From the NCBI RefSeq assembly GCF_045037415.1, contig NZ_CP173438.1: DNA of 64,000 bases; one strand, written 5' to 3'. The number at the start of each line of letters is the position of its first letter. The first letter of the stretch is position 1. The translations under genes and the position numbers were made by a program. Below the pieces are notes generated by a model, which saw only the letters and a list, made by a program, of their open reading frames with translations, was not told the origin of the DNA and made no database searches. Source of the stretch: Escherichia coli. Its GTDB lineage: Bacteria; Pseudomonadota; Gammaproteobacteria; Enterobacterales; Enterobacteriaceae. Positions 38,881 through 43,813 of this stretch are shown piece by piece.

Positions 38881-39554
38881 CAAACGTTCTGATTGTTGAA
38901 GATGAACAGGCTATTCGTCGCTTTCTGCGCACGGCGCTGGAGGGCGATGGGATGCGCGTCTTTGAGGCCGAAACGCTGCAACGCGGCTTGCTGGAAGCGG
39001 CTACCCGTAAGCCAGATTTGATTATTCTCGATCTCGGCCTGCCCGATGGTGATGGGATTGAGTTTATCCGCGACCTGCGCCAGTGGAGCGCGGTGCCGGT
39101 GATTGTGCTTTCCGCACGTAGCGAAGAGAGCGACAAAATCGCCGCGCTGGATGCCGGAGCGGATGATTATCTGAGTAAGCCGTTTGGCATTGGCGAATTG
39201 CAGGCCCGTCTGCGCGTCGCTTTACGTCGCCACTCCGCCACCGCCGCGCCCGATCCGCTGGTGAAATTTTCCGATGTTACCGTCGATTTAGCCGCCCGCG
39301 TTATCCATCGGGGCGAGGAAGAGGTGCATCTCACCCCGATTGAGTTCCGCCTGCTGGCAGTGTTGCTCAACAACGCCGGAAAAGTGCTCACCCAGCGCCA
39401 GTTACTCAATCAGGTGTGGGGACCAAACGCGGTCGAACACAGCCACTATTTGCGTATTTATATGGGGCATCTGCGACAAAAACTGGAGCAAGATCCCGCC
39501 CGCCCCCGCCATTTTATTACTGAAACCGGTATTGGGTATCGGTTTATGCCATGA
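38877..39554 (+). CDS. kdpE: response regulator KdpE (OmpR family)
   Basis: 225 aa; receiver domain (LIILDLGLPDGDG) and winged-helix domain; overlaps kdpD stop. Confidence 0.95.
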   Translation: MTNVLIVEDEQAIRRFLRTALEGDGMRVFEAETLQRGLLEAATRKPDLIILDLGLPDGDGIEFIRDLRQWSAVPVIVLSARSEESDKIAALDAGADDYLSKPFGIGELQARLRVALRRHSATAAPDPLVKFSDVTVDLAARVIHRGEEEVHLTPIEFRLLAVLLNNAGKVLTQRQLLNQVWGPNAVEHSHYLRIYMGHLRQKLEQDPARPRHFITETGIGYRFMP

Positions 39555-39598
39555 ATTATTATTCAATAAATACGCTTAAATAATTATTAATTTATTAT

Positions 39599-39640
39599 TA
39601 AACCTGCCCCGAAAATTATTATTTGGCAGGTTTAATTTCT
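39599..39640 (+). terminator. Intrinsic terminator downstream of kdpE
   Basis: aacctgcc...ggcaggtt hairpin followed by a T-rich tract. Confidence 0.55.
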
Positions 39641-39828
39641 TAATGAAAATACAACCCACAAAATTGCAACATTTAAACAACAAAACAGCATCTAATATGG
39701 CGCTATTCATCATTAATGATTTATTATTTGGGATATGATCGTTTTTTGTTGATCTTCTTCACAGATTATAGCCATTTCATGGATAGAATAACCCTACCTT
39801 CAACTGACACAGAAAAAGGTAAAGGTAA

Positions 39829-39933
39829 ATGGAAAATAATAACCGCTTAATGCCTCATATAAGGCGGACAACCCATATCATGAAGTTTGCCCATCGTAAT
39901 AGTTTTGACTTTCATTTTTTTAATGCCCGCTAG
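39829..39933 (+). CDS. speFL: speF leader / ornithine-sensing ribosome arrest peptide (34 aa)
   Basis: ORF MENNNRLMPHIRRTTHIMKFAHRNSFDFHFFNAR* about 300 bp upstream of speF; matches the known SpeFL leader including the C-terminal HFFNAR-type arrest region; below ORF-track cutoff. Confidence 0.8.
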   Translation: MENNNRLMPHIRRTTHIMKFAHRNSFDFHFFNAR

Positions 39934-40242
39934 TCTTCTGACTAAAGGGCACCCCAGCGTACAGGTCTCCCTGACTTTAAGCATTACAGGTTAATACCTG
40001 TATCCCTCGGTGCTCATATACTGCTAACCCTTTTAAACTCTAAATAATTCGAGTCGCAGCACATGCAACTTGAAGTATGACGAGTATAGCCAGTTACCGG
40101 GCTGGTCTGGGTTATTGCATCTGCAAAAAGCAAACTACTGATTTATTTATCAGCGGTGGGGTTTTGCTTTTTTCCGGCGTGATCAATTTCTCCTTTGAGA
40201 AATTGAGGACCTGCTATTACCTGAAATAAAGAGATGAACAAA

Positions 40243-42441
40243 ATGTCAGAATTAAAAATTGCCGTTAGCCGTTCTTGCCCGGATTGTTTTTCCACTCATC
40301 GTGAATGCGTGAATATTGACAAAAGTAATTATATTGACGTTGCCGCCATTATTTTATCAGTCAATGATGTTGAACATGGAAAACTCGATGAAATAGACGC
40401 TACTGGCTATGGCATTCCTGTTTTTATTGCAACGGAAAATGAAGAACGTGTACCAGCAGAATATCTGCCACGTATTTCTGGTGTCTTCGAGCATTGCGAA
40501 TCACGGAAAGAGTTTTATGGACGTCAGTTAGAAACCGCTGCCAGCCATTATGAAACGCAACTGCGCCCGCCCTTCTTCCGCGCACTGGTCGATTATGTCA
40601 ATCAGGGCAATAGCGCTTTTGACTGCCCGGGTCATCAGGGAGGTGAGTTTTTCCGTCGCCATCCGGCAGGCAATCAGTTCGTGGAATATTTTGGCGAAAT
40701 GCTCTTCCGCTCCGACTTGTGTAATGCCGACGTTGCAATGGGCGATCTACTGATTCATGAAGGTGCGCCATGCATTGCACAGCAACATGCGGCTAAAGTG
40801 TTTAATGCCGATAAAACGTACTTTGTTTTAAACGGCACATCCTCCTCCAACAAAGTGGTTTTAAACGCCCTGCTGACACCGGGTGATCTGGTGCTGTTTG
40901 ACCGTAATAACCATAAGTCTAACCACCACGGAGCGTTGCTACAGGCTGGTGCAACACCGGTTTATCTGGAAACAGCACGTAACCCGTATGGTTTTATCGG
41001 TGGCATTGATGCGCACTGCTTCGAAGAAAGTTATCTGCGTGAACTGATTACAGAAGTTGCACCGCAACGGGCAAAAGAGGCGCGTCCGTTCCGCCTCGCT
41101 GTGATTCAGTTAGGCACCTACGACGGTACTATTTATAACGCCCGCCAGGTGGTGGATAAAATCGGCCATCTGTGTGACTACATCCTGTTTGACTCCGCAT
41201 GGGTCGGCTATGAACAGTTTATTCCGATGATGGCGGACTGTTCGCCGCTGCTACTGGAGCTTAATGAGAACGATCCGGGTATTCTGGTTACGCAATCTGT
41301 GCATAAACAACAGGCTGGTTTTTCTCAGACTTCACAAATTCATAAAAAAGACAGCCATATCAAAGGGCAACAGCGTTATGTACCGCACAAACGCATGAAC
41401 AACGCCTTTATGATGCACGCCTCCACCAGCCCGTTCTATCCGCTGTTTGCCGCACTGGATATCAACGCCAAAATGCATGAAGGTGTCAGCGGTCGTAATA
41501 TGTGGATGGATTGTGTGGTTAACGGTATTAATGCCCGCAAATTGATCCTCGATAACTGCCAGCACATTCGCCCGTTCGTTCCTGAACTGGTGGATGGTAA
41601 ACCCTGGCAGTCGTATGAAACAGCGCAAATTGCGGTTGATCTGCGCTTCTTTAAATTTGTACCCGGTGAGCACTGGCATTCTTTTGAAGGCTACGCAGAG
41701 AACCAATACTTTGTCGATCCGTGCAAACTGTTGCTGACAACTCCAGGTATTGATGCACGTAACGGCGAATATGAAGCGTTCGGTGTACCCGCAACGATTC
41801 TTGCTAACTTCCTGCGCGAAAATGGCGTAGTGCCGGAAAAATGCGATCTTAACTCCATCCTCTTCCTGCTGACTCCGGCAGAAGATATGGCCAAACTGCA
41901 GCAACTTGTTGCCCTGCTGGTACGCTTCGAAAAACTACTGGAAGCTGATGCGCCTCTGGCGGAAGTACTGCCTTCCATCTACAAACAGCATGAAGAGCGC
42001 TACGCCGGTTATACCCTGCGTCAGTTGTGCCAGGAAATGCATGATTTGTATGCCCGTCACAACGTGAAACAACTGCAAAAAGAGATGTTCCGTAAGGAAC
42101 ACTTCCCTCGCGTCAGCATGAATCCGCAAGAAGCCAACTACGCCTACTTACGCGGTGAAGTGGAGCTGGTTCGTCTGCCGGATGCAGAAGGCCGTATCGC
42201 TGCCGAAGGTGCGCTTCCTTATCCTCCGGGTGTGCTGTGTGTTGTTCCTGGTGAAATCTGGGGTGGTGCTGTTCTGCGTTACTTCAGCGCTCTGGAAGAA
42301 GGCATCAACCTGCTGCCAGGTTTTGCACCGGAGCTGCAGGGTGTCTATATCGAAGAACATGATGGTCGTAAGCAAGTTTGGTGCTATGTCATCAAGCCTC
42401 GTGATGCGCAAAGCGCCCTGTTGAAAGGGGAAAAATTATGA
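40243..42441 (+). CDS. speF: inducible ornithine decarboxylase
   Basis: Large PLP-dependent decarboxylase; ORF-track start 40234 (MNKMSELKIAV...) with an alternative ATG at 40243 that has better Shine-Dalgarno spacing; overlaps potE start. Confidence 0.93.
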   Translation: MSELKIAVSRSCPDCFSTHRECVNIDKSNYIDVAAIILSVNDVEHGKLDEIDATGYGIPVFIATENEERVPAEYLPRISGVFEHCESRKEFYGRQLETAASHYETQLRPPFFRALVDYVNQGNSAFDCPGHQGGEFFRRHPAGNQFVEYFGEMLFRSDLCNADVAMGDLLIHEGAPCIAQQHAAKVFNADKTYFVLNGTSSSNKVVLNALLTPGDLVLFDRNNHKSNHHGALLQAGATPVYLETARNPYGFIGGIDAHCFEESYLRELITEVAPQRAKEARPFRLAVIQLGTYDGTIYNARQVVDKIGHLCDYILFDSAWVGYEQFIPMMADCSPLLLELNENDPGILVTQSVHKQQAGFSQTSQIHKKDSHIKGQQRYVPHKRMNNAFMMHASTSPFYPLFAALDINAKMHEGVSGRNMWMDCVVNGINARKLILDNCQHIRPFVPELVDGKPWQSYETAQIAVDLRFFKFVPGEHWHSFEGYAENQYFVDPCKLLLTTPGIDARNGEYEAFGVPATILANFLRENGVVPEKCDLNSILFLLTPAEDMAKLQQLVALLVRFEKLLEADAPLAEVLPSIYKQHEERYAGYTLRQLCQEMHDLYARHNVKQLQKEMFRKEHFPRVSMNPQEANYAYLRGEVELVRLPDAEGRIAAEGALPYPPGVLCVVPGEIWGGAVLRYFSALEEGINLLPGFAPELQGVYIEEHDGRKQVWCYVIKPRDAQSALLKGEKL

Positions 42442-43757
42442 GTCAGGCGAAATCGAACAAAATGGGTGTCGTTCAGTTAACCATACTGACGATGGTCAAC
42501 ATGATGGGCTCCGGTATCATCATGCTGCCGACAAAGCTTGCCGAAGTCGGGACAATCTCAATTATCTCCTGGCTGGTGACAGCCGTAGGCTCAATGGCAC
42601 TGGCATGGGCATTCGCAAAATGCGGTATGTTCAGCCGTAAATCAGGAGGTATGGGCGGTTATGCCGAGTATGCTTTCGGTAAATCCGGTAACTTTATGGC
42701 GAACTATACCTACGGCGTCTCGCTGCTGATTGCTAACGTCGCGATTGCTATTTCGGCGGTTGGTTACGGCACCGAACTGCTCGGCGCGAGTTTGTCGCCA
42801 GTGCAGATTGGTCTTGCGACCATCGGGGTGCTGTGGATTTGTACCGTGGCTAACTTTGGTGGTGCGCGCATTACCGGGCAAATCAGTAGCATTACCGTGT
42901 GGGGGGTCATTATTCCGGTGGTAGGCCTGTGCATTATCGGCTGGTTCTGGTTTAGCCCGACGCTTTACGTTGATTCCTGGAATCCGCATCATGCACCCTT
43001 CTTCAGTGCGGTAGGTTCTTCCATCGCTATGACGCTGTGGGCTTTTCTTGGTCTGGAGTCTGCGTGTGCGAATACTGATGTAGTGGAAAACCCGGAACGT
43101 AATGTGCCAATCGCGGTACTCGGCGGTACGTTAGGTGCGGCGGTGATTTATATCGTCTCCACCAACGTGATTGCCGGGATTGTGCCAAATATGGAGCTGG
43201 CAAATTCAACGGCACCATTTGGTCTGGCCTTCGCGCAGATGTTCACGCCGGAAGTGGGTAAAGTCATTATGGCGCTGATGGTGATGTCCTGCTGCGGTTC
43301 GCTGCTTGGCTGGCAGTTCACCATTGCCCAGGTGTTTAAATCTTCATCTGATGAAGGCTACTTCCCTAAAATTTTCTCCCGTGTAACCAAAGTGGATGCA
43401 CCGGTGCAGGGAATGTTGACCATTGTGATTATCCAGAGCGGGTTGGCGCTGATGACGATTAGCCCGTCGCTAAACAGTCAGTTCAACGTGCTGGTTAACC
43501 TGGCCGTGGTGACTAATATCATTCCGTATATTCTGTCAATGGCGGCATTAGTCATTATTCAGAAGGTCGCTAATGTGCCCCCCTCAAAAGCGAAAGTTGC
43601 AAACTTTGTTGCTTTTGTTGGCGCGATGTACAGCTTTTATGCGCTGTACTCATCCGGGGAAGAAGCCATGCTATACGGTTCCATCGTGACCTTCCTCGGT
43701 TGGACACTGTATGGTCTGGTCTCACCACGCTTTGAACTGAAAAATAAACACGGTTAA
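42438..43757 (+). CDS. potE: putrescine-ornithine antiporter (APC family)
   Basis: 439 aa; MSQAKSNKMGVVQLTILTMVNMMGSGIIMLP N-terminus. Confidence 0.95.
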   Translation: MSQAKSNKMGVVQLTILTMVNMMGSGIIMLPTKLAEVGTISIISWLVTAVGSMALAWAFAKCGMFSRKSGGMGGYAEYAFGKSGNFMANYTYGVSLLIANVAIAISAVGYGTELLGASLSPVQIGLATIGVLWICTVANFGGARITGQISSITVWGVIIPVVGLCIIGWFWFSPTLYVDSWNPHHAPFFSAVGSSIAMTLWAFLGLESACANTDVVENPERNVPIAVLGGTLGAAVIYIVSTNVIAGIVPNMELANSTAPFGLAFAQMFTPEVGKVIMALMVMSCCGSLLGWQFTIAQVFKSSSDEGYFPKIFSRVTKVDAPVQGMLTIVIIQSGLALMTISPSLNSQFNVLVNLAVVTNIIPYILSMAALVIIQKVANVPPSKAKVANFVAFVGAMYSFYALYSSGEEAMLYGSIVTFLGWTLYGLVSPRFELKNKHG

Positions 43758-43766
43758 TTAAGCAAA

Positions 43767-43802
43767 GCAAAAAAGGGCGATCTTCCGACCGCCCTTTTTC
43801 TT
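43767..43802. terminator. Bidirectional terminator between potE and pgm
   Basis: aaaaagggcg...cgccctttttc hairpin with flanking A-run and T-run. Confidence 0.6.
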
Positions 43803-43813
43803 ATTTGATATGT

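Follow-up and report, generated by a model that had tools for sequence, protein, structure and literature searches.

The gap between kdpE and speF in an Escherichia coli genome holds the ornithine-sensing leader gene speFL in an allele distinct from that of K-12

Introduction

What, if anything, is encoded in the long gap between kdpE and the speF-potE operon of Escherichia coli, and does this gap hold the parts by which ornithine could control the operon? We investigated this question in a 64,000-nucleotide stretch of E. coli DNA (contig NZ_CP173438.1, hereafter called the window). Two published systems serve as references, namely SpeFL of E. coli K-12 (b4803, formerly within the ybfK region; PDB 6TBV/6TC3; Herrero del Valle et al., bioRxiv 10.1101/604074) and orf34 of Salmonella Typhimurium (Ben-Zvi et al. 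2019, PMC6386406). Cryo-EM and toeprint analyses established that SpeFL captures ornithine directly and with high specificity, and ornithine-dependent, puromycin-resistant stalling at codons 33/34 was shown for the K-12 peptide only (10.1101/604074). Rho-dependent (bicyclomycin-sensitive) premature termination was demonstrated in both K-12 (10.1101/604074) and Salmonella (PMC6386406).

Results

Identity of the open reading frame between kdpE and speF

The gap measures 688 bp, from the end of kdpE at position 39554 to the start of speF at 40243, and an earlier note on this DNA, which put it at roughly 680 bp, had described a 34-codon, SpeFL-like frame there that the open reading frame (ORF) track does not display. 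Both the frame and the reason for its absence from the track were recovered in our analysis: a 34-residue product falls under the usual length cut-off (the default minimum of our ORF listing is 60 residues), and lowering the minimum to 20 residues revealed an ATG-initiated, TAG-terminated ORF of 34 codons at exactly 39829 to 39933 on the plus strand (Table 1). The speF start used here is the one annotated by RefSeq in a strain with an identical spacer; an ATG at 40234 shares the reading frame of speF in the window but not in K-12, and 40243 was therefore taken as the true start.

The mere presence of a 34-codon ORF is uninformative, since chance yields about a dozen ORFs of at least 20 residues overlapping this AT-rich gap in the same listing. 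Its identity is instead indicated by (i) the 679-bp spacer, which is 100% identical to that of E. coli strain 4/1-1, where RefSeq annotates speFL ('leader peptide SpeFL', WP_001312672.1) between kdpE and speF-potE; (ii) a match of residues 7-33 to the Pfam family PF10940 (SpeFL / DUF2618), at 27.9 bits against a gathering cut-off of 25 (E 2.1e-6); and (iii) a match to the SpeFL chain of PDB 6TBV/6TC3 (E 1.7e-18), with residues 8-34 all identical to those in 6TBV. Furthermore, the gene order kdpE-speFL-speF-potE is the same in the window and in K-12, and SpeFL homologues sit upstream of speF even next to unrelated upstream neighbours. Among the flanking proteins of the window, Pfam assigns KdpE to the response regulators, finds all three Orn/Lys/Arg decarboxylase domains in SpeF, and identifies PotE as an amino-acid permease; speF begins 309 nt 3' of speFL on the same strand and potE follows. 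An NCBIfam scan of the 34-residue peptide matched no family, so the RefSeq name must derive from some other route, and the missing match does not count against the SpeFL identity.

We conclude, with a probability of roughly 0.94, that the ORF of the window is speFL, the gene for the ornithine-sensing ribosome-arrest leader peptide of speF-potE, in the form that most E. coli carry. As such it is a known gene, annotated in RefSeq genomes including that of K-12, with a solved mechanism, and is neither hidden nor new; the gap only seemed empty, and leader peptides encoded by ORFs this short call for a dedicated search pass.

Table 1. Coordinates of speFL, its leader elements, and the downstream operon in the window
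Feature	Position	Strand	Basis
Conserved block TGGATAGAATA with probable -10 hexamer TAGAAT (39784-39789)	39780..39790	+	Homology
Shine-Dalgarno (SD) region of speFL, AAAGG at 39815-39819 with repeat at 39821-39825	39815..39825	+	Direct sequence reading
speFL coding sequence, 34 codons plus TAG, MENNNRLMPHIRRTTHIMKFAHRNSFDFHFFNAR	39829..39933	+	RefSeq WP_001312672.1 'leader peptide SpeFL'
Codons 10-16, ornithine-recognition motif HIRRTTH (HIRRXXH)	39856..39876	+	Protein identical to K-12
Codons 20-34, effector domain (F20, F26, F28, F30, F31, N32, A33, R34), blocks RF1	39886..39930	+	Identical to K-12
[quoted passage not shown]
Hairpin around the last speFL codons and UAG, proposed RNA polymerase pause hairpin	39924..39951	+	Predicted, -15.8 kcal/mol
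GGCACCCCAGCG, match to the pause consensus G-11 G-10 ... Y-1 G+1 (GGN8YG)	39948..39959	+	Regular expression; also in K-12
Conserved leader hairpin TACAGGT-TAAT-ACCTGTA	39985..40002	+	Alignment, fold
Short-form ERIC (IRU) repeat, 52 bp, in the speFL-speF spacer	40038..40089	+	Identity to the ends of a full-length copy
Leader 3' end: hairpin CAATTTCTC-CTTT-GAGAAATTG, then GAGGACCTGCTATTACCTGAAATAAAGAGATGAACAAA with the speF RBS	40185..40242	+	Alignment
speF, inducible ornithine decarboxylase, regulated gene	40243..42441	+	OKR_DC_1_N, OKR_DC_1, OKR_DC_1_C domains
potE, putrescine-ornithine antiporter, co-transcribed with speF	42438..43757	+	RefSeq annotation, Pfam

Selection on the SpeFL peptide

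Alignment with K-12 SpeFL, which the earlier note had proposed as a check, showed 32 of the 34 residues to be identical and the arrest motif to be in frame and intact. The suspicion that positions 4-8 differ from K-12 was well founded, in that the two exchanges, S5N and T7L, lie there and are the only ones. At the DNA level the two genes are far less alike than their products, with 16 of the 105 nucleotides differing (84.8% identity). Thirteen of these differences fall on third codon positions, and the affected codons comprise 12 synonymous and 2 non-synonymous changes. When 16 random substitutions with the observed transition/transversion mix were placed in the gene, none of 200,000 simulations gave two or fewer amino-acid changes (p < 5e-6). 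The other two reading frames contain stops and 13-14 positions that differ from K-12. Both the third-position bias and the simulations indicate that the SpeFL peptide itself is under strong purifying selection.

This result bears directly on the reading that the ORF arose by chance within an AT-rich untranslated leader whose role is that of an RNA only. Such a reading could appeal to the many other short ORFs of the gap and to the significant structure of the leader RNA, but it is already refuted by the synonymous bias of the substitutions, and it is further opposed by (i) the matches of the ORF to a Pfam family and a PDB chain, (ii) the conservation of the peptide beside speF in unrelated genomic contexts, and (iii) the absence of stalling with a frameshifted speFL (10.1101/604074). 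We regard a chance frame as next to impossible, and the ORF is treated below as speFL.

In the 14 representative SpeFL homologues obtained in a full-library HMMER search, the peptide opens with MENNNR and continues with L, F, A, or K. Natural variation thus falls on positions 5 and 7, with MENNNR as the family norm and the S5 and T7 of K-12 as the exception.

Functional residues and codons

In K-12 SpeFL, E2 and N3 of the N-terminal sensor hairpin touch uL4 and 23S rRNA; the ornithine pocket is lined by P9, R12, and R13; H10, I11, R12, R13, and H16 of the HIRRXXH loop are individually essential; and the effector domain comprises F20, F26, F28, F30, and F31, with N32 displacing U2585 and thereby inactivating RF1 (10.1101/604074). 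Every one of these residues, as well as the UAG stop, is intact in the window, where Pro9 directly precedes HIRRTTH. The rare arginine codons 12-13 (AGG at 39862-39864 and CGG at 39865-39867) are likewise the same as in K-12, where they hold trailing ribosomes off the rut site (10.1101/604074), and as in a Salmonella-type leader from our comparison set (L012), so called by its match to published features and not by a taxonomic label. The window resembles K-12 in locus, length, and UAG stop, in the ornithine-binding and RF1-blocking residues, and in the rare arginine codons, the stop-codon hairpin, and the pause consensus, with the promoter-proximal region being only about 60-75% identical between the two. 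Salmonella orf34 shares with it the 34 codons, the HIRRTTHIM core, and the AGG-CGG pair, and its Rho-dependent termination just past the stop-codon hairpin and long-range helix to the speF RBS are predicted for the window as well; its peptide differs from that of the window by L7F and K19M.

The exact conservation of the AGG-CGG pair invites a different view of the main signal, in which arginine supply rather than ornithine matters, and ribosome speed at these two codons selects between leader folds, one of which is degraded by RNase G, as modelled for Salmonella orf34. Arginine repression in Salmonella indeed requires both these codons and RNase G (PMC6386406). This model is, however, not exclusive of ornithine sensing, since ornithine induction was seen in the same Salmonella study (PMC6386406); SpeFL captures ornithine directly and specifically in cryo-EM and toeprint experiments (10.1101/604074); and the conserved Phe-rich C-terminal domain is accounted for by arrest and not by codon pacing. 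Arginine as the main signal is accordingly very improbable in our estimation, and the arginine-responsive layer that acts in Salmonella via rare codons and RNase G (PMC6386406) is compatible with the ornithine mechanism and no true rival to it.

Promoter and RNA elements of the leader

Upstream of speFL, the promoter block is conserved in the window, K-12, leader L010, and the Salmonella-type leader, and reads TGGATAAAATA in the last two. The Salmonella speF transcription start was mapped 31 nt 5' of the orf34 AUG (PMC6386406), and in the Salmonella-type leader the homologous hexamer ends 7 nt before this mapped start. By alignment with that leader, transcription of speF-potE in the window would start near 39796 and yield a leader of about 447 nt, in keeping with the earlier proposal that speFL accounts for the long 5' leader of the operon. 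A simple sigma-70 scan found no canonical -35/-10 pair where the speF promoter is expected. The SD region of the window aligns with the GAAAGG of K-12 and of the Salmonella-type leader; the SD of Salmonella orf34 is AGGA (PMC6386406). In genomes with the haplotype of the window, RefSeq/PGAP annotates a 44-residue 'hypothetical protein' (WP_001295874.1, 39716-39850), which overlaps both the promoter and the start codon of speFL. No Pfam family matches it, and the corresponding K-12 region, 60-70% identical with indels, carries no annotated gene; the call is probably spurious.

The 3' part of speFL may serve the RNA as well as the peptide. In Salmonella, the proposed rut element is a CU-rich segment at mRNA nt 112-124 (PMC6386406), and by homology the pyrimidine-rich tract of the window would act as rut and as the 5' strand of a long-range helix. 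This tract is poorer in C than its K-12 equivalent (CUUUCAUUUUUUU versus CUUUCACUUCUUC), and the C-over-G bias of the window, no stronger than about 0.28 versus 0.18, is suggestive of a rut site at most. A cluster of synonymous TTC-to-TTT and CAC-to-CAT changes relative to K-12 lowers the C count of the tract from 5 to 2 and goes with a stronger predicted helix; these changes are silent for the peptide, yet could affect the RNA.

Farther downstream, the stop-codon hairpin is predicted in all four leaders (window, K-12, L010, and Salmonella-type), with differing loops. [quoted passage not shown] 4 of the same study (10.1101/604074). The premature 3' end predicted from its match in the window, position 39958, agrees with the Rho-dependent termination mapped about 20 nt beyond the orf34 stop in Salmonella (PMC6386406). 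A terminator scan of the leader region detected no intrinsic terminator on the plus strand, which is consistent with Rho-dependent control. The scan also passed over an inverted repeat at 39600-39640, just 3' of kdpE (AAACCTGCC...GGCAGGTTT followed by AATTTCTT), owing to its 16-nt loop. This repeat, which is likely the terminator of the kdp operon, overlaps a sub-threshold Rfam STnc370 match (26.9 versus 54 bits) and is mostly absent from K-12. Across 39400-40400, Rfam gave nothing at gathering level, and the leader thus has no curated RNA family.

Two further elements lie in the spacer between speFL and speF. The first is the conserved leader hairpin, in which K-12 and L010 have GGC/GCC and the window has GGT/ACC, a compensatory exchange between U-A and C-G. 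The second is the leader 3' end, which is nearly invariant in the four leaders and pairs with the 3' codons of speFL in predicted folds. In Salmonella, this long-range helix between the orf34 3' codons and the speF RBS was proven by compensatory mutations (PMC6386406). The corresponding duplex of the window is predicted at -23.3 kcal/mol (z = -2.3; 8 of 300 shuffles as good) and is also present in the minimum-free-energy fold, the whole-leader fold having a z score of -3.7. With values of -27.8 kcal/mol (z = -3.3) for the Salmonella-type leader and, short of significance, -16.1 kcal/mol for K-12, the predicted helix of the window is closer to the Salmonella type than the K-12 helix is.

Two haplotypes of the speF leader in E. 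coli

Among 5426 complete E. coli genomes, speFL DNA was at least 95% identical to that of the window in 3335 (about 61%) and 80-90% identical in 1704 (about 31%), with only 4 at 90-95%. The former class includes O157:H7, ATCC 25922, and UPEC strains, and the latter includes K-12 and MC4100. The window thus carries the majority haplotype, and K-12 the minority allele. The divergence extends beyond the gene, since identity to K-12 is 60-90% over a tract that begins near 39190, in the 3' third of kdpE, and ends near 41200, some 1 kb inside speF, and returns to 98-100% in the flanks; within the first 61 codons of speF alone there are 22 synonymous and 14 non-synonymous changes. Salmonella-like and L010-like outgroup leaders stand at much the same distance (79-82%) from either haplotype. 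These equal distances point to no Salmonella-like or L010-like donor for a recent import of one haplotype, and the pair may reflect either ancient polymorphism or an import.

K-12 also carries ybfI, a fragment of the kdpE 3' end. Its identity to the kdpE 3' end is 87-88% in either haplotype and, because of this equidistance, gives no sign of which haplotype is older. Between potE and pgm, K-12 has ybfI, ybfG, and ybfP (L002 1722-1871), and the window runs from potE to pgm across a 56-bp spacer (43758-43813). This is another structural difference between the two loci, and it hints at how speF-potE was inserted beside kdpE.

The speFL-speF spacer is 309 nt long in the window and 257 nt long in K-12, which has an empty site, the difference being due to the ERIC insert. 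Each half of the insert matches one end of a full-length copy of ~127 bp between dxs and yajO (L003) at every position (17/17 and 35/35). That copy contains both ERIC-PCR primer sites (ERIC1R and ERIC2), with a single mismatch in each, and a 72-bp internal deletion has removed the core from the insert. An E. coli genome has a repeat of this kind at a median of 4 places. A weak Rfam isrH match at 40032-40088 (24.2 versus 45 bits) is explained by the ERIC repeat. The Salmonella-type leader has a 380-nt spacer with a different, lineage-specific insertion of ~122 nt (L012 ~1700-1825) in the loop of the conserved leader hairpin (TTACAGG...CCTGTA), and lacks a GGN8YG match; the first 16 nt of this insertion, CTAAATAACTCGAATTG, resemble the left end of ERIC. 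Evidently, the speF leader tolerates insertions.

These differences raise the question of whether the speFL of the window, while sharing descent with that of K-12, behaves unlike it, with a shifted basal level of speF-potE or a shifted ornithine threshold or, in the extreme case, with sensing abolished. S5N and T7L fall in the N-terminal hairpin, and deletion of residues 1-7 abolishes stalling in K-12 (10.1101/604074). Moreover, several of the 12 synonymous changes lie within the CU-rich tract proposed as rut and helix strand, the predicted RBS helix is significant in the window but not in K-12, and the ERIC insert lengthens the spacer. However, the MENNNRL of the window is the common family form, and the Salmonella-type MENNNRF leader responds to ornithine (PMC6386406); all contact residues are retained; the allele is intact and almost invariant in more than 3300 genomes, which argues for a maintained function; and an even larger insertion is tolerated by the Salmonella-type leader. 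A departure from K-12 behaviour is therefore unlikely, and an ornithine-sensing SpeFL remains the preferred reading.

We suggest only tentatively that the control region of speF, from the kdpE 3' end through the promoter, speFL, and the leader to ~1 kb into speF, exists as an ancient haplotype pair of which the majority member may set another basal level or ornithine threshold, and a measurable regulatory difference between the two leader haplotypes seems doubtful to the same degree. Were it real, it would constitute a natural regulatory polymorphism in a pathway tied to acid stress and to the growth of uropathogens on ornithine. The K-12 allele is the one studied in the mechanistic and structural work on SpeFL, and the window-type leader differs from it by 15-40% in places and by the ERIC insert; where conclusions on speF regulation are to be extended to pathogenic lineages (B2, O157), the allele of the window is the suitable one.

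Proposed mechanism in the window

The mechanism has been demonstrated in K-12 and Salmonella, and for the window we infer it from the intact parts described above. Transcription would begin about 33 nt 5' of speFL, and RNA polymerase would pause just past the hairpin enclosing the speFL stop codon. At low ornithine, the leading ribosome would terminate at the UAG and depart, and the AGG-CGG pair would delay the following ribosomes, so that the pyrimidine-rich rut site becomes exposed and Rho could terminate the paused polymerase about 25 nt beyond the speFL stop. At high ornithine, one ornithine molecule would be held between the 23S rRNA and the nascent peptide, at the HIRRXXH loop of the latter, and the Phe-rich C-terminal domain would compact, displacing U2585 and excluding RF1. 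The ribosome stalled on codons 33/34, together with the queue behind it, would then cover the rut site and let transcription reach speF-potE; in addition, translation of the 3' codons of speFL would open the long-range helix and free the speF RBS.

The closest parallel outside the family is TnaC, the tryptophan-sensing arrest peptide of the tnaCAB operon, a short leader peptide that likewise captures a free amino acid within the exit tunnel, with the release factor blocked at the stop codon and the stalled ribosome hiding a rut site and thereby preventing Rho termination (10.1101/604074). TnaC is no member of the SpeFL family, however, and differs in its sequence, ligand, binding pocket, and operon.

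Disrupted speFL alleles in other E. coli genomes

In CFT073 (L004 4995-5036), a 63-bp in-frame deletion removes codons 3-23, and with them the whole ornithine-sensor domain, leaving MENSFDFHFFNAR; in RefSeq, this stretch bears the mistaken label of a partial TonB-dependent receptor. Being unique among the 5426 genomes, the deletion was rejected as a common third allele, and it represents either a predicted loss of ornithine sensing in a much-used UPEC reference or a sequencing error in the 2002 assembly.

A second disruption is an IS1 element in K-12-type speFL after codon 10/11, flanked by the 9-bp target duplication GCCCCATAT (L007 745-1530; also in L006). Present in 18 contigs, it parts the promoter, the SD, and the N-terminus from the HIRR motif. 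Gene callers report from this allele a chimeric 34-residue 'SpeFL' (MNKLESLPPHIRR...; P0008) whose start lies within the IS1 end, and which we rejected as a natural N-terminal variant on account of the insertion and its target duplication.
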